Shown here: positions 11,999 through 24,404 of the stretch, piece after piece
Layout: every line of letters starts with the position of its first letter
How positions within the stretch are numbered: position 1 is the stretch's first letter
From: a virus
Strand: one strand, 5' to 3'
DNA length: 24,404 bases
Virus genome (UHGV): UHGV-0166778
Translations under genes and position numbers: made by a program
Notes under the pieces: model-generated
What the model saw: the letters and a program-made list of their open reading frames with translations, nothing else
Told to the model about the DNA's origin: nothing
The model's database searches: none

Positions 11999-12599
11999 AA
12001 CCAAGAATGGACTTCAATGACAAATTGAGCTTATCAATTAATTTTTCATCCTCATAGTTTACAGACTTGATGTTTTTGAGCATCGCAGGCAATTCAGCAT
12101 CACCAATTATCACAGGAATTATAGGAACATAGTTTTCATCTTTTACCGTAGCTTTACGGAGAAAGCCCTCTACCTCCTTTCTTATATATGACTCCATATC
12201 TTCATTAGACAGAAGCAATATAGCCGCAGCGCTATTGTCTATAGCCTGATTAATTTGCTTTTCAATAATCTGCCCGGGCAATATGTTATTTTCATCAAAC
12301 CATACATCAAAACCTAACTCATTAAGCTTACAAGTTATTTGACGGGCCTTATCTTTTTCTTGTACGGGATACATTAGAAATATTTGCTTTCCTTTTTTAA
12401 CGGCCTTTAGTCTTCTTTCCCTTAATTTCATTAACACAATCAAACTCAGGCCAGAATAGGCAAAAGATAATCCAATAACGGAGATGATAATCTCATCATT
12501 AACTCCTTGAAATAAATATGGGAGCCGTGGAATAAGAGCCATAAGAAACCCAACAACAGCCAATGCAATTGAAATAATATAAAGAGTATTTTTTTTCAT
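11997..12599 (-). CDS. Membrane-anchored TIR-like domain protein (two N-terminal TM helices plus C-terminal TIR-like fold)
   Basis: 200 aa. N-terminal hydrophobic helices (LYIISIALAVVGFLMALIP; IIISVIGLSFAYSGLSLIVLM), then IFLMYPVQEKDKARQITCKLNELGFDVWFDENNILPGQ...AIDNSAAAILLLSNEDMESYIRKEVEGF, which follows the TIR beta-A / alpha-A / beta-C pattern. AT-rich, unlike the flanking phage core. Confidence 0.6.
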   Translation of the reverse strand: MKKNTLYIISIALAVVGFLMALIPRLPYLFQGVNDEIIISVIGLSFAYSGLSLIVLMKLRERRLKAVKKGKQIFLMYPVQEKDKARQITCKLNELGFDVWFDENNILPGQIIEKQINQAIDNSAAAILLLSNEDMESYIRKEVEGFLRKATVKDENYVPIIPVIIGDAELPAMLKNIKSVNYEDEKLIDKLNLSLKSILG

Positions 12600-13016
12600 T
12601 TACACACCCTTAATCCACAAAACAAAGGAAGCAAAAAATAATATGCCGACTAAATTACACCCAATACATAAAACCCAAATTTGACCTTTTGGATTTCCTG
12701 TTCGCCCTTCCCAATCTTGATGAAAAGACATGATCCCCAGTAATACAAAAAGAGAGAAGGCAAGAAAGCTAGTAGTTCCAATGTACTGATTAACCACTTG
12801 GTTAACCGTGGTTACTGTTTGAACAGTTTTAGTCAAATCATATAAATTCAACAATGATGCACCAATTGTCGATAATATCAACTCATTCCCAAAGTAAAAA
12901 TCACTCTTTTGCCAACCAGAGGATCTGGCAAGTTTTTTTACAAAAGCCCCACATAGAATCATCAACAATGGAAAAATTAAAGCAACAACGTATTTATTAC
13001 CAATGACATCAATCAT
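12600..13016 (-). CDS. Small polytopic membrane protein, function unknown; first gene of an operon with the TM-TIR gene
   Basis: 138 aa with about four hydrophobic helices; its stop codon directly abuts the ATG of the TM-TIR gene; AT-rich. Confidence 0.55.
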   Translation of the reverse strand: MIDVIGNKYVVALIFPLLMILCGAFVKKLARSSGWQKSDFYFGNELILSTIGASLLNLYDLTKTVQTVTTVNQVVNQYIGTTSFLAFSLFVLLGIMSFHQDWEGRTGNPKGQIWVLCIGCNLVGILFFASFVLWIKGV

Positions 13017-13206
13017 TAATCATCATTCCTTCAATAAATCGCATCATGCCTTTTTGTTTTTAGCTTCATCCACAACCAGTCACCATCGACATCAATATAT
13101 CACATACTAAATATATAATAATTTTATCGAACTATACAAAGCAACCAAGAGTAAAAATAACATACTCTGCCTTACATTCGAAAGGACATTATCATCCCAA
13201 CGCGCG

Positions 13207-13225
13207 CTCGTATCCCCGCCACGCC
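13207..13225 (-). other. Candidate cos (cohesive end) core
   Basis: Reverse complement reads GGCGTGGCGGGGATACGAG; the first 13 nt match the P2/186 cos overhang as I recall it (GGCG[A/T]GGCGGGGAAAGCA). An isolated GC-rich block in an AT-rich intergenic region, at the map position expected for cos. Confidence 0.3.
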
Positions 13226-13270
13226 TGCCCGCTTTATGTAGTAGTTTTCATGCAGGTGCATGATCTACGC

Positions 13271-13294
13271 AAAAGCCCGCCAGTTCTGGCGGGC
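13271..13294 (-). terminator. Rho-independent terminator downstream of the 13343..14185 gene
   Basis: Stem gcccgcc / ggcgggc with a short loop; on the minus strand it is followed by TTTT. Confidence 0.4.
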
Positions 13295-13342
13295 CTTAGC
13301 AAAAACGATCCTCAAACGATCATGCGATCTCATGCAGCATAG

Positions 13343-14185
13343 TCATGCACGATCATTTGACTCAGCATCTGCTGCACGCTTGCTGCGCGAAGATGCACTT
13401 TTACTACCAATCTTTCGACAGTTCTTTCTATCCCTGGCTTCATTTTCTTTAAATTTGTTATATGTCTCAGTATCAAAAAACGAAATTGTTTCAACCTCAT
13501 CTTTTGGTATGAGCACACGGAAATCTTCGATATTAAGCCGAGACATTCCACTTATCACACCACTATCAAGATAATGTTGGTGATAGTTAGTCGTGATACT
13601 AATCGTTAGATCATCTTTATCCCGATATCCGCTTAACATCGGGAGAAGTTCAAGGTGTTCTGAAAGCCCGTTTTCTAACGCCGGACAAGTAACAAGACCA
13701 ACATAGATTTTGCGAGACGACAGAGTTGCTATGATCGGAAACTGTCTTGCGGACGCTTCCATGAGTAATGATTCGAAAGCGTTATTACCCACAGCTTTAG
13801 CTAAGGCATCCCAGCGACGATCTCCACGTGATGTGCGTAACTTATTTCCAAAACCTGAAATCGCAGCGAGGACAATTGAAATCATAACCCATGCTATCTG
13901 TTTGATTTCATTTATTCTTTGAAGTTTGTCTTTCGATGAAGACAACATGCCGTTAAAACTGTCAGGTGTTAGATTCAAGGCATTAGCCAGCCAACGAAAC
14001 CCTCCGCTGACGTTCAAAATAAAGGTGAAAAAACCGCCAAGGAGAAAAAAAACGATACCCCAGGCAGCCACAAAAAAATAAGCGTCCCAGCCGTTGGAAC
14101 GCTTATATCGGTATCTTGTTGAAAGTGATAGGTTTACATAAATAAAACCACTAACCAAAATCACTGCTAAAAGTAATGTTGCCAT
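13343..14185 (-). CDS. Membrane-anchored protein of unknown function (N-terminal TM helices plus about 170-aa soluble domain)
   Basis: 280 aa with hydrophobic segments (LLLAVILVSGFIYV; YFFVAAWGIVFFLLGGFFTFIL; IAWVMISIVLAAISGF) and a charged Ser/Arg/Lys-rich C-terminus; AT-rich; start overlaps the stop of the upstream small gene (TAATG). Confidence 0.5.
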   Translation of the reverse strand: MATLLLAVILVSGFIYVNLSLSTRYRYKRSNGWDAYFFVAAWGIVFFLLGGFFTFILNVSGGFRWLANALNLTPDSFNGMLSSSKDKLQRINEIKQIAWVMISIVLAAISGFGNKLRTSRGDRRWDALAKAVGNNAFESLLMEASARQFPIIATLSSRKIYVGLVTCPALENGLSEHLELLPMLSGYRDKDDLTISITTNYHQHYLDSGVISGMSRLNIEDFRVLIPKDEVETISFFDTETYNKFKENEARDRKNCRKIGSKSASSRSKRAADAESNDRA

Positions 14186-14670: not shown

Positions 14671-14904
14671 TTAATGCAGCCAGCTGTCGTCTTCCCACAC
14701 CTTCTGCATAATTTTCATTACTTGTTTCCTTTCTTCGTCCAGTTGCAGTCCGGTCAGTTCCACACCGTTAGAGCTACCTTTACGGATACGAATTACCGTT
14801 TTGGGATACAGGGGGCGCAGATTGCGGTAAAGCTCGGATTCAAAGGCGTCCAGGGTAGACTGGCTAATCTTCTGCTCTTTATCGATCATTATTTCAATGC
14901 GCAT
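14671..14904 (-). CDS. dinI: DinI-family protein
   Basis: Internal start MRIEIMIDKEQKISQSTLDAFESELYRNLRPLYPKTVIRIRKGSSNGVELTGL...VWEDDSWLH fits the DinI length and pattern (MRIE... N-terminus, acidic W-containing C-terminus); GAGGTG ribosome-binding site upstream. Confidence 0.75.
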   Translation of the reverse strand: MRIEIMIDKEQKISQSTLDAFESELYRNLRPLYPKTVIRIRKGSSNGVELTGLQLDEERKQVMKIMQKVWEDDSWLH

Positions 14905-14914
14905 AAAAGTCACC

Positions 14915-15103
14915 TCAACTGATGACATCCATTGAGCGGTTGTATTCGTGGGTTCTGATTTTTGCCATAAGTTCATCTGTCAGTTCAGAAACCCACTGCA
15001 AAGCCAGCCCCTTCTCTTCATCACTACACTCACTAGCCGCTACAAGCTTAAGAAAAAAATCAATGCGCTGGAGCTTCAAAGACTCCAAAAAATAGTCCTG
15101 CAT
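14915..15103 (-). CDS. Putative Tum-like antirepressor (small protein transcribed from the LexA-controlled promoter)
   Basis: 62-aa ORF with a GGAGGA ribosome-binding site, directly downstream of a LexA-box promoter and upstream of dinI; the position matches tum of phage 186. Confidence 0.4.
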   Translation of the reverse strand: MQDYFLESLKLQRIDFFLKLVAASECSDEEKGLALQWVSELTDELMAKIRTHEYNRSMDVIS

Positions 15104-15143: not shown

Positions 15144-15186
15144 CACTGTTTACATTTACAGTATATAATAATCTTACTGATGTAAA
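15144..15186 (-). promoter_or_regulatory. SOS-regulated promoter: LexA box (CTGT-N8-ACAG) overlapping the -10 element
   Basis: Plus strand 15146..15161 is ctgtttacatttacag. On the minus strand, -35 TTTACA (15181..15186), a 17-bp spacer and -10 TACTGT (15158..15163) are overlapped by the LexA box. Confidence 0.6.
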
Positions 15187-20109: not shown

Positions 20110-20619
20110 TCACAGCAAACCGAATGAAGCACCGAGGCCAGTCACGGTATCAACCGCACTCGCCATCGCAGGATTAGCCTGTAAACGGGCCTGCAATGAA
20201 ACAGCAGCCAGCGCCATCAGTCGTGTAACAGAGTTAATGCTGCTGATCGCATCACGACGGCCTGCACTGGTTTTTACATCGCCAGAAACCGCACCTGCCG
20301 CGACACGCCCGATCTCTGCGGTTGCACTCATGACGTAATGTGGCAGTTTCTCTTTTGCCACCTCATTAATCGGTACACATGGCAGGCAGTGAATCTGAGC
20401 CAGAAAACCATCTACCAGCGTTGAATCTTCAGTCAGATCGGTAAGCAACCAGATTTCTGGTGCAGTTAATAAATGAGGTTGAGCTGGGTTCAGCTTGTTC
20501 CGCAGAATCTGCACATTCATGCCTGCACGTTCTGCCAGTTGCACCAGGTTGTGGCGCAGTGCAAAAGCCCTACAGGCTTCATCGAAATGCGGATGTTTGG
20601 AAATCTTGTAATCAAACAT
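20110..20619 (-). CDS. cII: CII-like lysogeny establishment regulator (phage 186 CII family)
   Basis: 169-aa [76 protein letters not shown]..., following an Apl-like gene as in 186. Confidence 0.8.
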
Positions 20620-20651
20620 GGTGCCCCCTTAGAAAGTTCCCATAATTGAAC

Positions 20652-20894
20652 TTACTTACCAACAATGACGCGGAAGTTGGAATGACCGAGGGATTCACGG
20701 ACCTGATCGGTTTTGTACATCAGATAACGCAGGCTTACGCGGCCTTTGTTTTTTTCTTTCTTGACCATGTACTTAGCAAGTTGACCATGGTGAATTTTTT
20801 GGTAAACAGAGCCGCGGGAAATACCCTCCCACTCTGCGAACTCTGCAGGCGTAGCCATCTCTTTTGGTACACGAATTGAAATATCAGTACTCAT
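20652..20894 (-). CDS. apl: Apl/Cox-like excisionase and transcriptional regulator
   Basis: 80-aa helix-turn-helix-like protein (PAEFAEWEGISRGSVYQKIHHGQL) as the first gene of the lytic operon, divergent from cI. Confidence 0.7.
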   Translation of the reverse strand: MSTDISIRVPKEMATPAEFAEWEGISRGSVYQKIHHGQLAKYMVKKEKNKGRVSLRYLMYKTDQVRESLGHSNFRVIVGK

Positions 20895-20940
20895 AGTGCA
20901 GTATCTCTTACTTTGTGTGCGTGTTAGTTCGTTTTAGCCC

Positions 20941-20996
20941 GTCTCTTAAACTCTCACATCAAGAGACATGAAGACATTACGATCTTGATTCAAGAT
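20941..20996. promoter_or_regulatory. Switch-region operators between apl and cI
   Basis: 7-bp inverted repeat gtctctt...aagagac (20941..20947 / 20961..20967), direct repeat agacat x2 (20964..20977), and the 15-bp palindrome atcttgaTtcaagat (20982..20996). Confidence 0.4.
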
Positions 20997-21015
20997 TGTC
21001 AAATGGAGATCACCA

Positions 21016-21648
21016 ATGTTAAACATCAGAATGGGTTCCGATACGGGAGGTAAGGCAGCTATTGGAAGGCTGCTTGAGGCTTATGGATTCACAACTAAGC
21101 AGGCATTAAGCGAGCACCTGAATGTCTCAAAAAGCACTATGGCAAACAGAGTGTTACGTGACAGCTTTCCTGCTGACTGGATAATTCAGTGCGCACTAGA
21201 AACCGGTGTTTCGTTGCTTTGGTTAGCTACAGGACAGGGAAGCATGAAAGGAGGAGCTGAGCCTGAGAAAAGTTCTCATAATGAGAACAAACAAGCAATT
21301 AAACCGTTATCCAAACTCATAACTCCAGCTATTCCTAAAGGAACCCTGGAGAATGGACAACTCAGTATTGATGAAGAGATTTTCCTAGACCACAGCATAT
21401 TACCTGCAGATTATGAAGAATTGATGTTCTTAGAAACCCCTACTAATTGTTATCTCATCGATAAATCAATTAAACAGGTCAGCAATGGATTCTGGCTTAT
21501 CAATATTGATGGAATGATTATTGTTGCAAAAATCATGCGGATTCCCGGCAATAAGATTGTAGTAAATCAAGATGAAGCGTCTTTCGAGTGCTCTACTGAT
21601 GATGTGGAAGTTATTGGGCGTGCAGTCAAAGTAATAAAGAGTATCTAA
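21016..21648 (+). CDS. cI: CI immunity repressor (phage 186 CI family)
   Basis: 210-aa ORF with an N-terminal helix-turn-helix region (LLEAYGFTTKQALSEHLNVSKSTMANRV...CALETGVSLLWLATGQG) resembling 186 CI; followed directly by int. Confidence 0.8.
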   Translation: MLNIRMGSDTGGKAAIGRLLEAYGFTTKQALSEHLNVSKSTMANRVLRDSFPADWIIQCALETGVSLLWLATGQGSMKGGAEPEKSSHNENKQAIKPLSKLITPAIPKGTLENGQLSIDEEIFLDHSILPADYEELMFLETPTNCYLIDKSIKQVSNGFWLINIDGMIIVAKIMRIPGNKIVVNQDEASFECSTDDVEVIGRAVKVIKSI

Positions 21649-21650
21649 AC

Positions 21651-22664
21651 ATGACTGTCAGAAAACAGCCAAACGGTAAATGGTTGTGCGAGTGCTATCC
21701 CCATGGACGCAATGGCAAGCGCGTGCGTAAGCAATTTGCTACGAAAGGCGAAGCCATTGCTTTTGAAAGCTTCACAATGGAAGAAGTGAACAAAAAGCCA
21801 TGGCTGGGGGAAAAGGAAGATCGGCGACACCTATCAGAATTAATTGAGCAGTGGTATTCCCTGTATGGTCAAACACTCGCAGACCCCAAGCGCCTCATGG
21901 CGAAACTTAGAATTATCTGTAATGGTCTAGGCGATCCCATCGCCTCAGAGCTGACAGCCGGTGATTTTACTAAATACCGAGAAGCGCGGCTAAAAGGTGA
22001 AGTGCGAAATGAAGAGGGCACGCTTATGTCGCCCGTTAAGCCCCGCACTGTAAACCTTGAACAGCGCAACCTATCATCTGTTTTTGGCACACTGAAAAAG
22101 TTGGGCCACTGGTCAGCCCCCAATCCGCTTGCCGGGCTGCCAACATTTAAAATTGCTGAGGGTGAACTGGCGTTCCTGACCCCGGAAGAAATTAAACGTC
22201 TGCTGGATGCCTGTGCTGATTCTCAAAGCCCCAGTCTACTTTTAATTGCAAAAATATGCCTGGCCACCGGCGCGCGCTGGAGTGAAGCCGAAAATCTGCA
22301 GGGCCATCAGTTATCGAAATACCGGATCACCTATACCAAGACTAAGGGCAAGAAAAACCGTACCGTGCCGATATCTCAGGATCTGTATGACGAACTCCCT
22401 AAGAACAGAGGGAAGTTATTCACTCCTTGCAGAAAAGCCTTTGAACGAGCAGTAAAGCGAGCTGACATTGAGTTACCAGAGGGCCAATGCACCCACGTTC
22501 TGCGCCATACATTCGCCAGCCATTTTATGATGAATGGTGGTAATATTTTGGTTTTACGAGATATTTTAGGCCACTCTGATATAAAAATGACTATGATTTA
22601 TGCACATTTTTCCCCAGAGCATCTTGAAGATGCAGTAATAAAAAACCCTCTGGCTAATTTATAA
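21651..22664 (+). CDS. int: Tyrosine integrase (P2/186 family)
   Basis: 337-aa ORF with a C-terminal catalytic region (ARWSEAENL...HVLRHTFASHFMMNGGNILVLRDILGHSDIKMTMIYAHF) showing the R...H-x-x-R...Y signature. Confidence 0.9.
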   Translation: MTVRKQPNGKWLCECYPHGRNGKRVRKQFATKGEAIAFESFTMEEVNKKPWLGEKEDRRHLSELIEQWYSLYGQTLADPKRLMAKLRIICNGLGDPIASELTAGDFTKYREARLKGEVRNEEGTLMSPVKPRTVNLEQRNLSSVFGTLKKLGHWSAPNPLAGLPTFKIAEGELAFLTPEEIKRLLDACADSQSPSLLLIAKICLATGARWSEAENLQGHQLSKYRITYTKTKGKKNRTVPISQDLYDELPKNRGKLFTPCRKAFERAVKRADIELPEGQCTHVLRHTFASHFMMNGGNILVLRDILGHSDIKMTMIYAHFSPEHLEDAVIKNPLANL

Positions 22665-22690: not shown

Positions 22691-23476
22691 ATGCTGTCTG
22701 AAATAGAAATCAATGATGAAATTCAGCGAGGCAACATTTTTGATCCATTAACGGTATTAAATGGAACATTTAAAGTTCAATCTGCAAGCATTGATCTCTC
22801 TGTAAAAACAATACATATACCAGACTGTCAAGACAATAAAAAAACACGTAACAACCATATCCTGATGCCAGGGGAAACTGTAATATTAGAGTTAAATGAA
22901 AAATTCCAACTTGCAAAAAATTTAGCTGGTGTAATATTCCCAAGAAACACACTATCAAAAAATGGAATTATCATGACGAATCCAGGGCATATTGACCCTG
23001 GATATAATGGCATAATTTCAATATATCTTGTAAATATGTCAAAAGAACCATTCTCATTGACACAAAATTCTGCAGTAGCCCGAATGTTATTATTTAAAAC
23101 AATAATACCGACTAAAGGTTACCAAGGAAAAATCGTAAATAAATTGGATGATGATCAACTTTCTAGAATGGGAAAGGATTTTGCAGGACTTGATAAACGA
23201 CTTCCGAAAGAAATCAATAAAATCATTGCGAAAAAAACTGGCTTTATAATTGCGATAGCAGCCTTAATGCTAACGTTGATAACCCTAGCAATTCCTTTCT
23301 TATTTCAAATAGTATCCAGTAATGTCAGTAGTACAAAAGATCTTGAATTAACAATAAAAGTTCAACAAAATGAAATAAATAGCCTAAAAAGCACCGTTGA
23401 ATTACTAAAAAATGCTAAATCAAACGAACCAAAGGTTGATGCTAAAGTAAGCACCCCAAAAGCTATACGGGAGTAA
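22691..23476 (+). CDS. dCTP deaminase (Dcd)/dUTPase-fold protein with a C-terminal TM helix and coiled-coil tail
   Basis: 261 aa. The N-terminal ~185 aa show Dcd-family landmarks (LNGTFKVQSASIDLSV; PGETVILELNEKFQL; GIIMTNPGHIDPGYNGIISIYLVN); followed by a TM segment (FIIAIAALMLTLITLAIPFLF) and a Lys/Glu-rich coiled coil. AT-rich; ThyX start codon 2 nt after its stop. Confidence 0.7.
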   Translation: MLSEIEINDEIQRGNIFDPLTVLNGTFKVQSASIDLSVKTIHIPDCQDNKKTRNNHILMPGETVILELNEKFQLAKNLAGVIFPRNTLSKNGIIMTNPGHIDPGYNGIISIYLVNMSKEPFSLTQNSAVARMLLFKTIIPTKGYQGKIVNKLDDDQLSRMGKDFAGLDKRLPKEINKIIAKKTGFIIAIAALMLTLITLAIPFLFQIVSSNVSSTKDLELTIKVQQNEINSLKSTVELLKNAKSNEPKVDAKVSTPKAIRE

Positions 23477-23478
23477 AA

Positions 23479-24246
23479 ATGATAAAAATCTCTGATTTAT
23501 CAGTAAAATGCATATCACACCCTTCATTTGAAAGTAATGTTTTTGATGATTTTTTAAACACATCATCATTGCAATGGGTTCGCAAAGGGCAGGCGACCGA
23601 AGCTGAGCTTCTGGTAGAGGCCGCTGGCAGGCTATGTTATATGTCTTTTGGAGAGGATAAGCAGTCTCCACGGACTACAAGTCAATATATCAACAATTTA
23701 ATTATTCAAGGGCATGAAAGTGTCTTAGAACATTTGAACTGGACCTTTTTAATTACTGGGGTATCTCGTGCATTTACACACCAGCTAGTTCGGCATAGAG
23801 CTGGTTTTTCATATAGCCAGTTATCCCAACAGTATCATGATGAATCCGATGCTGAATTCGTAGCCCCTATAGAAGTAAAAAATGACCCAGAATTGTTTAA
23901 GTCATGGTGCCAACATATTGAAAGTAGTCTGGATTTTTATAAGCAATCCTTGAAAAAAATCCGTGAAAACCAATCGTATGAGAACAAAAAAGAAAAAATG
24001 CGGGCCCTAAGAAGCGCTTCTCGCTCTATATTGCCTAATGCAACCGAGACAAAAATAATCGTCACAGCAAATGCTCGCGCAATTCGACACTTCTTCGAAA
24101 TGAGAGGAGCAATACAGGGTGACTATGAAATGAGAACAGTTTCAGAAAAACTTTACGATATTGTAACTCAAGATGCCCCTGCCTTGTTCCAAGATTTCGA
24201 AAAAGTCAATGGAGGAACGGCGCACGTTAAGATAATAAAACAATAA
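23479..24246 (+). CDS. thyX: Flavin-dependent thymidylate synthase (ThyX family)
   Basis: 255 aa with the ThyX signature region GHESVLEHLNWTFLITGVSRAFTHQLVRHRAGFSYSQLSQQY (RHR-x7-8-S motif) and C-terminal ETKIIVTANARAIRHFFEMR; strong GGGAG ribosome-binding site. Confidence 0.85.
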   Translation: MIKISDLSVKCISHPSFESNVFDDFLNTSSLQWVRKGQATEAELLVEAAGRLCYMSFGEDKQSPRTTSQYINNLIIQGHESVLEHLNWTFLITGVSRAFTHQLVRHRAGFSYSQLSQQYHDESDAEFVAPIEVKNDPELFKSWCQHIESSLDFYKQSLKKIRENQSYENKKEKMRALRSASRSILPNATETKIIVTANARAIRHFFEMRGAIQGDYEMRTVSEKLYDIVTQDAPALFQDFEKVNGGTAHVKIIKQ

Positions 24247-24281: not shown

Positions 24282-24363
24282 ACCATTCAATTTTTTTGGC
24301 GGCATTTTGGCGGCAGAGAACTAAAACCCATATAAACCCCTTAACACCACATAAACATAATAC

Positions 24364-24404
24364 CTGTCTCTTATACACATCTGACGCTGCCGACGACTTA
24401 ATAG
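24364..24404. other. Illumina Nextera adapter read-through plus index (non-biological)
   Basis: ctgtctcttatacacatctgacgctgccgacga is the Nextera transposase adapter (Tn5 mosaic end CTGTCTCTTATACACATCT plus the read-2 tail); the final cttaatag is consistent with the reverse complement of an 8-nt i5 index. Confidence 0.85.

Follow-up and report, generated by a model that had tools for sequence, protein, structure and literature searches.

The virus genome UHGV-0166778, which is called the window here at its full length of 24,404 nucleotides (nt), contains a 121-base-pair (bp) intergenic spacer at 20895–21015. The spacer lies between the start of apl (20894, minus strand) and the start of cI (21016, plus strand), and the following genes flank it.

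20110–20619, minus strand: cII, encoding 169 amino acids; Pfam PF06892 (3.2e-42); 68% identical to 186 CII over all 169 amino acids.
20652–20894, minus strand: apl, encoding an 80-amino-acid excisionase and regulator of the Cox/Apl type; first gene of the lytic operon.
21016–21648, plus strand: cI, encoding the immunity repressor of 210 amino acids, with a helix-turn-helix at the N terminus and a C-terminal oligomerisation domain.
21651–22664, plus strand: int, encoding a tyrosine integrase of 337 amino acids (Pfam PF24624 and PF00589); co-transcribed with cI.

The spacer is very probably the core of an ordinary 186/Fels-2-type lysis–lysogeny switch in an RE-2010/Cartapus-like Peduoviridae prophage, as judged from sequence comparison. 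CI matches the Pfam families PF07022 (1.5e-29) and PF16452 (3.3e-29) and the structure of 186 CI (PDB 2FJR, E = 4.6e-26), and its C-terminal domain is homologous to PDB 2FKD (E = 5e-12). Apl shares 30% identity with its 186 counterpart (E = 4e-13) and has matches in PHROG 575, 'Cox-like excisionase and repressor', and PHROG 6912. The 186-type cI diverges from apl and is followed by int, and the Apl/Cox-type regulator heads the lytic operon and is followed by CII (CP76 family). The initial annotation of this DNA had proposed a 186-type arrangement, which is supported by the cII-apl/cI-int order, the CI domains with the 2FJR match, and the identities of Apl and CII to their 186 counterparts.

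The stretch from apl to cI is 99.4–99.5% identical to that of Salmonella phages RE-2010 and SE479_1PHIH2 and Escherichia phage Cartapus. With RE-2010/Cartapus (Felsduovirus), the DNA identity over apl, spacer and cI is 99.4%, the CI of RE-2010 is 98.6% identical, and the elements I2, I3, FL and FR described below are identical. A search of 5426 complete E. coli genomes found 64 with an immunity region of at least 95% identity. A scan with one genome per species returned CI relatives that are mostly 34–46% identical (69% at one locus) and none of the same immunity type, and a literature search found no study of RE-2010/Cartapus-type operators. The immunity region is already public, so the sequence is not new. 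Apl is 99–100% identical in amino acids to the Apl of Fels-2 and of Klebsiella phage ST15-OXA48phi14.1, and the same Apl protein accession is carried by all ten annotated E. coli loci except L058. CI is 57–59% identical to the repressors of Fels-2 and the Klebsiella phage. The distinct immunity specificity that had been suggested earlier holds with respect to 186 (CI 30% identical), Fels-2 (57%) and P2 (an unrelated repressor family); it is unremarkable, as the same region was already public. The RE-2010 GenBank record (HM770079; L001 3096-3254, 3784-4008) shortens both genes, giving an 'excisionase' of 159 nt and a 'repressor' of 225 nt. The window and the RefSeq annotations support the 80-amino-acid Apl and the 210-amino-acid CI against these gene lengths.

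Three inverted repeats and one direct repeat lie in the spacer.

20979–20988 and 20990–20999: I2, two arms of 10 nt each with 90% complementarity and a perfect core, ATCTTGA t TCAAGAT, at 20982–20996.
20941–20967: I3, a dyad with the arms GTCTCTT (20941–20947) and AAGAGAC (20961–20967) and a 13-nt gap; about +1 to +27 of the promoter pR; specific to this immunity type.
20958–20964 and 20983–20989: I4, with the arms ATCAAGA and TCTTGAT, which are shared with I2 and I3.
20964–20977, plus strand: chance repeat agacat in two copies (20964–20969 and 20972–20977), of which the first overlaps the right arm of I3 and the second overlaps the pR -10.

Two inverted repeats and the direct repeat had been reported for this spacer in the initial annotation and are present as I2, I3 and agacat; I4 was absent from its list. 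To gauge chance, the spacer was shuffled 5000 times with its dinucleotides preserved. Inverted repeats with 7-bp arms and gaps of up to 20 turn up at least once in 15% of shuffles and at least twice in 4.3%, against three with shared arms in the real spacer. Inverted repeats with a gap of up to 3 occur in 3.5% of shuffles. At least one repeated 6-mer is found in 78% of shuffles, with a mean of 1.9 families. I2 and I3 are real, non-random inverted repeats, and they are modestly unusual by shuffle statistics alone. Conservation within the immunity type was read from 42 sequences (19 distinct) with CI 78–100% identical overall; the N-terminal CI residues 18–75 were unchanged in the eight same-type loci translated. 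The variable columns sit between the elements, and five of the seven columns at 20968–20974 vary.

It is very unlikely that the repeats are coincidental, that only the promoters and ribosome-binding sites matter and that CI binds elsewhere. The shuffle frequencies of a single 7-bp inverted repeat and of a repeated 6-mer are in line with coincidence, and the close relatives are so conserved that most columns are uninformative. The scarcity of shuffles with two or more inverted repeats speaks against it, as does the placement of the variable columns exactly between the elements. For agacat alone, coincidence is the best reading; for I2, I3, FL and FR it is disfavoured. The agacat repeat is not conserved with the same CI, since 20968–20971 and 20973 are among the most variable columns of the 42 sequences. 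As an Apl operator, the role assigned to it earlier, agacat is rejected because it stands at chance level and is unconserved in the same immunity type.

The agacat copies could also be seen as a repressor operator if the switch were of the P2 C/Cox type, with a repressor that recognises direct repeats. P2 C is described as binding directly repeated half-sites near Pe (PMC1904268, PMC2995052), and the second agacat copy coincides with part of the pR -10. P2 resembles the window in its face-to-face early promoters and in a Cox/Apl-type excisionase that doubles as a regulator (PMC3448106). P2 differs in having a short, unrelated C repressor that binds direct repeats and in lacking cII, and the window has neither property. 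The repressor in the window is a 210-amino-acid CI of the 186 type (PF07022 with PF16452) and cII is present, whereas C of the P2 type is about half the size of CI and cannot be aligned with it (PMC3448106). The P2-type switch is refuted by the repressor protein family and the non-conservation of agacat among phages with the same CI, and it deserves almost no credence.

Two promoters facing each other are predicted around the repeats.

20998–21003, minus strand: predicted pR -35, TTGACA, which aligns with the annotated 186 pR -35.
20975–20980, minus strand: predicted pR -10, TAATGT, 17 bp from the -35; start deduced at about 20968.
20876–20904, plus strand: predicted weak promoter pL, with -35 TTGAAA (20876–20881), a distance of 17 bp and -10 CAGTAT (20899–20904); start deduced at about 20911.

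The pR -35 is kept as TTGAC[AG] in every immunity type examined and has one variable column in the same-type set, and the -10 of relatives is TAATGT, TAATAT, TAATTT or TAGTAT. The pL -35 lies at apl codon positions +14 to +19, exactly where the annotated 186 pL has its own, and pL is conserved across all relatives compared. The predicted face-to-face layout combines a conserved pR that aligns with 186 pR and a weak pL placed as in 186. From the deduced starts, the predicted pR and pL transcripts would be convergent and overlap by about 58 nt. P2-like phages have convergent promoters 40–60 bp apart, and in 186 the overlap is 62 bp (PMC7498355). A promoter reported by the scan, TTAACA at 21022–21017 with GACAAT at 20995, was rejected because its -35 lies within cI codons that differ in locus L042.

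Candidate CI operators were located at pR and at two distal positions.

20981–20997: O1 (equal to I2), probable CI operator GATCTTGAtTCAAGATT; it fills the 17-bp pR spacer (palindrome ATCTTGAtTCAAGAT).
21272–21288: FL-like distal CI site, a perfect 17-bp palindrome GTTCTCATaATGAGAAC inside cI, 291 bp from the O1 centre.
20636–20651: FR-like distal CI site GTTCCCATAATTGAAC, about 345 bp from O1, within the 32 bp that separate apl from cII.

The candidates were scored with a 17-bp operator model built solely from the conserved inner palindrome of 27 Xenorhabdus relatives. The CI proteins of these relatives are 44–46% identical overall to that of the window (69% in L038) and have the same recognition helix, SKSTMANR. 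O1 is the second-best model match in the whole 24.4-kb window, at 13.8 bits (chance 5e-4 in the spacer and 0.11 in the window). FL is the top match, at 24.7 bits, a score that was never reached in 400 shuffles. That O1 and FL are the top two matches to an independently derived model also argues against coincidence. O1 varies within the type only at the symmetric positions ±3 and ±4 and at the centre, with TC..GA.TC..GA invariant, and one of its pairs changes from T-A to C-G in L042 and L043. Its position is that of the central pR operator of 186, in which the palindrome ATCTCTCAATTGGGAGAT fills the pR spacer; the 186 pR operator definitions were taken from the GenBank annotation. O1, a dyad-symmetric candidate that overlaps pR, is probably a CI operator. 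CI had been proposed to bind the inverted repeats, and the model score and symmetric variation make I2 a credible operator candidate, while I3 scores 0 bits on the model.

FL and FR share the exact 11-mer GTTCNCATAAT, whose only two occurrences in the window are at these sites. FR aligns with the annotated 186 FR (TTCACTTTATGTGAA) and is present in every relative examined. In 186, FL and FR lie about 306 bp and 371 bp from the central pR operator (subtracted from record coordinates), and CI binding at pR, FL and FR follows a published model (PMC3675496). The two sites of the window lie about 300 bp on either side of pR and match 186 FL and FR in position, and on this basis they are putative CI sites. 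Their correspondence in position to experimentally mapped 186 sites, like that of the other elements, is a further point against coincidence. A common geometry, TCNC-N5-GNGA, takes the form TCTY-N5-RAGA in this phage and TCAC-N5-GTGA in the 186 FL, FR and pB sites.

Three further candidates were considered around these sites. FL was flagged as a terminator by the scan; it is antisense within cI and has no upstream promoter to terminate, and the operator-model score explains it better. A third operator, TGGAGATCACCA (21004–21015, 20.5 bp from O1), was rejected, as the palindrome matches at 10 of 12 positions, 21011 is changed from C to T in most relatives and the score is 8.1 bits. An O2 site, TCTTGAtGTGAGA, 29–31 bp from O1, agrees at 9 of 13 positions (P = 0.16) and is lost in L043; it is a weak possibility only.

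The Apl sites are probably repeats of the TAAAAC type rather than agacat, as their sequence and distribution suggest.

20921–20936, minus strand: probable Apl operators TAAAAC (20936–20931) and TAACAC (20926–20921), 10 bp apart, on the apl side of I3.
24297–24357, plus strand: att arm, with Int arm-type repeats TGGCGGCATTTTGGCGGCA (24297–24315), followed by phased TAAAAC/TAAACC/TAACAC/TAAACA (24322–24357), probable Apl excision sites.

Apl is identical among phages in which CI differs; therefore, true Apl sites should be common to them. In 13 spacers that represent at least six CI types with the same Apl, TAAAAC units keep to positions -42 and -32 relative to the apl ATG, and sometimes -52 as well; an 11-bp insertion in L047 and L048 adds one unit of this type. 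The TAAAAC/TAACAC units common to all same-Apl phages thus take the place of agacat as the candidate sites. The pair at the switch is the sole TAA[AC]AC pair at 9–12 bp spacing in the window, where 0.05 would be expected. Weaker units phased at 10 bp extend over about 20900–20959, and the lag-10 autocorrelation of 20897–20960 is 0.46 (P = 0.005). With a looser motif, the window holds four phased pairs where 0.7 would be expected, and three of these belong to the switch or the att arm (two to the att arm). Direct repeats one helical turn apart therefore occur both at the switch (20921–20936) and at att (24322–24357), and equivalent TAAAAC-type units are found in the att arms of Fels-2 and RE-2010. 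186 Apl binds direct repeats one helical turn apart, needs three adjacent operators and spreads into neighbouring DNA (PMC7498355).

I3 is the least straightforward element of the spacer. In the same-type set, one of the 14 arm columns and one of the nine columns of the loop core (20952–20960) vary, whereas its surroundings vary at all three columns of the flank (20938–20940) and all four of the adjoining loop (20948–20951). The expectation that the repeats would be conserved in relatives with the same CI is thus borne out for the I3 arms and for I2 and fails for agacat. Dyads occur at the I3 position in other immunity types, with arm/gap/arm lengths in bp of 7/11/7 in Fels-2 (TGGTTTG-N11-CAAACCA), 8/15/8 or 9/9/9 in the Klebsiella type (CCAACTTC-N15-GAAGTTGG for the former) and 10/15/10 in Xenorhabdus. 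An inverted repeat of at least 7 bp at this position in at least four of seven immunity types has P ~5e-6, which again disfavours coincidence. The SopE-phi type has a second copy of O1 30 bp downstream, with 12 of 13 matches (P < 0.001), and this implies that the I3 zone binds CI in at least some relatives. On balance, I3 is slightly more likely than not to be a zone of CI contact.

Three SopE-phi-type loci (L057, L059 and L060) carry two nearly identical 13–14-bp palindromes, TCAAATATTGRAT, one in the pR spacer and one 30 bp downstream. This two-operator layout is clear and unlike the window.

It is rather unlikely, although conceivable, that I3, and possibly I2, act chiefly through nucleic-acid secondary structure and are not protein sites. 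I3 would then form a stem-loop, placed either at the very start of the pR (apl) mRNA or in a cI leader derived from pL or pE, and would affect stability, translation or sense–antisense pairing in the overlap of about 58 nt. In favour of such a mainly structural role, folding predicts an RNA hairpin for I3 that reaches -10.7 kcal/mol (z = -2.85) when read on the pR-sense strand and -7.1 kcal/mol (z = -3.87) on the plus strand; it starts about 1–2 nt past the predicted pR start. The full leader and the pR 5' region fold no better than shuffles (z = -0.6), and an Rfam search of 20500–21400 gave no credible RNA family. The immunity types keep complementarity and change the arms and their spacing, and half-site distances of 18–25 bp would be hard for a single rigid dimer to span. 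The loop has 13 nucleotides, of which nine (20952–20960) are conserved to the same degree as the arms; this is a sign of sequence-specific recognition and speaks against the structural reading, as does the co-segregation of I3 with cI in mosaics.

The strongest case for structure comes from Xenorhabdus (L005–L031 and L038; about 27 species), whose 186-type cI has its first 80 residues identical in 24 of 28 loci. A 10-bp stem lies there by the pR -10, about 35–70 nt upstream of the cI start, and encloses a conserved TCTCA-N-GAGA palindrome. The outer stem arms covary, with compensatory double changes in seven of ten pairs across 27 loci; none of 500 shuffles reaches this, and slid controls score lower. 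Such covariation despite a near-invariant CI N-terminal domain suggests that those arms fold into a structure rather than serve as protein contacts. Wobble pairs in these loci favour the cI-sense strand, 22 to 10, while the enteric wobble evidence is contradictory (T.G on the plus strand in L090, G.T on the minus strand in the window). The Xenorhabdus stem abuts the -10, so the pR RNA would miss most of one arm. Alternative hairpins of I3, I4 and I2 that would act like an attenuator were rejected, because the I4 pairing needed for the alternative fold is lost in L043 and a U-run is lacking afterwards.

The dyad downstream of pR, that is, I3 and the Xenorhabdus stem, might tentatively be seen as a structural element that 186-type switches conserve and that has not been described before, which is unlikely on present evidence. 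It would take the form of a hairpin in the pR/pL sense–antisense overlap, or of a cruciform in the DNA, with a CI operator contained in it or occluded by it. If true, this element would couple repressor binding to RNA fate, with arms that drift freely while they stay complementary. Two features of phage 186 were read by eye: an inverted repeat of 9 bp without mismatch, GCAATTGAT...ATCAATTGC, whose arms are 25 nt apart within the pR–pL overlap (L002 2570-2612), and CAATTG, which recurs at 32- and 35-bp intervals from the central pR operator.

Similarity to those E. coli prophages in which apl is shared and cI is different stops at window positions 20907–20936 (query end-points converted), and homology to Fels-2 stops at about 20936. 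This break implies that I3 and O1 go together with cI, and pL and the Apl units with apl. The exchangeable immunity module seems to extend from about 20937 to the end of the N-terminal domain of cI. Fels-2, SopE-phi and the Klebsiella Gegavirus type have an identical Apl and the same pL, TAAAAC units, FR and CII site, together with the same CI recognition helix, SKSTMANR, and the same pR geometry. They differ in CI, which is 50–59% identical, in a spacer replaced from about 20937 rightwards with the inner bases of O1 changed, in the dyads downstream of pR described above (a second O1 copy in SopE-phi), and in the FL palindrome, which is absent at the aligned position in all of them.

The rest of the regulatory circuit is probably represented by two further features.

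20593–20619, minus strand: probable CII-binding site at the promoter pE, ATGTTTG...CAAACAT, at the start of cII; nearly base for base the annotated 186 CII site (record 23435-23462).
About 14674–15102, minus strand: Tum-like open reading frame (ORF) with a C-terminal DinI domain (3.7e-22).

A LexA-box-like CTGT-N8-ACAG (CTGTTTACATTTACAG) lies at 15146–15161, just upstream of the Tum-like ORF; the count of LexA-type boxes alone is not above chance, since at least one occurs in 29 of 100 shuffles. The ORF with the DinI domain probably encodes an antirepressor of the Tum type, through which the prophage would be open to SOS induction. For pR, pL, the spacer palindrome, FR and the CII site alike, the position agrees with that of the equivalent in the annotated 186 record.

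The following mechanism is proposed, in which all protein–DNA assignments are read from sequence. CI would repress pR through the O1 palindrome that fills the pR spacer, and by analogy with 186 a CI multimer on pR may loop to the FL-like (about 290 bp) and FR-like (about 345 bp) sites. I3, which lies in the same exchangeable module as cI, would most likely serve as a second zone of CI contact; alternatively or additionally, it could fold into a hairpin, either where the pR RNA begins or in the cI leader. Apl would nucleate on the phased TAAAAC-type repeats that lie between I3 and pL and then extend across both promoters, which has been demonstrated for the 186 protein; the second repeat set, in the att arm, would be bound by it too. 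The circuit would be completed by CII, through pE, and by the LexA-controlled Tum-like antirepressor.

Several observations weigh against this scheme. pL is missed by a consensus promoter scan (its -10 matches at 3 of 6 positions), as is expected of a weak promoter. O1 differs at 5 of 17 positions among phages with identical helix-turn-helix residues 18–75; this divergence would mean that the recognition rules are loose or that CI residues 3–17 matter. FR is 1 bp shorter than FL and for this reason fails the 17-mer model. It is also nearly identical across different immunity types and is thus not immunity-specific, and its conservation could merely reflect the conserved apl-cII block. I3 gets 0 bits from the operator model, resembles O1 at only 9 of 13 positions (P = 0.16), and has its Xenorhabdus counterpart in arms that covary. 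There are only two strong TAAAAC units, while 186 Apl needs three adjacent operators in vitro, and the att-arm units are on the opposite strand from the switch units, whereas both 186 sets are on the same strand.

The likeness to 186 covers many features. Both phages place int-cI to one side of the switch and apl-cII-fil to the other, the two CI proteins are built from the same pair of domains and the structure of 186 CI is matched, a probable dyad operator fills the pR spacer, and the predicted pL -35 lies at the same apl codons. The predicted face-to-face promoters overlap by about 58 nt here, against 62 bp in 186, the distal palindromes lie at about 290/345 bp here and about 306/371 bp in 186, and the FR and CII sites can be lined up with their 186 counterparts base by base. 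Direct repeats in helical phase occur between the promoters and at att, and a Tum-like ORF with a DinI domain lies behind a LexA-like box. The differences lie in the proteins and motifs. The CI of the window is 30% identical and 18 amino acids longer in the linker. The operator core is TCTY-N5-RAGA here, whereas 186 has TTCAC-N5-GTGAA (FL, FR, pB) or ATCTC-N8-GAGAT (pR). One clear candidate operator at pR and the I3 dyad 35 bp away could be identified here, against three operators two helical turns apart in 186. The Apl motif is TAAAAC with two strong units, against seven TTGGCA-like units, and the att-arm units here lie on the strand opposite the switch units.

These comparisons suggest that the 186 architecture of face-to-face promoters, distal sites about 300 bp on both sides and Apl repeats at switch and att is kept with a CI that is only 30% identical. 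FL, FR, the phased TAAAAC repeats and the promoters had been missed in the initial annotation, although its general 186 reading stands. The coordinates now given for pR, pL, O1, FL, FR, the Apl sites and the CII site apply to a common Salmonella/E. coli prophage type. They are of mild use for generalising the 186 'wheel' model, with its 14-mer of CI that wraps and loops DNA, and for predicting superinfection immunity groups from sequence. Only the recurring, covarying dyad downstream of pR might open a new question.

Several features lie outside the switch. The last 41 bases (24364–24404) begin with CTGTCTCTTATACACATCTGACGCTGCCGACGA, which is the Illumina Nextera transposase adapter; the contig therefore ends in untrimmed adapter, inside the prophage att arm before the core. 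Between int and the att arm (22691–24246), two cargo genes encode a 261-amino-acid dCTP-deaminase/dUTPase-like protein (PF22769, PF00692), in which the stretch past the catalytic domain looks hydrophobic by eye, and a 255-amino-acid ThyX (PF02511). PADLOC gave no match for these two genes. RE-2010 differs from the window here, as it carries instead of the dCTP-deaminase-like gene and thyX a single unrelated ORF of 401 amino acids with no known function, which indicates that this is a variable cargo slot. At 12000–14185 (minus strand), between the replication/Tum region and the capsid genes, a 200-amino-acid TIR-domain protein (PF13676, 3.6e-17) adjoins ORFs of 138 and 280 amino acids without a Pfam match, and this group could be anti-phage defence cargo.

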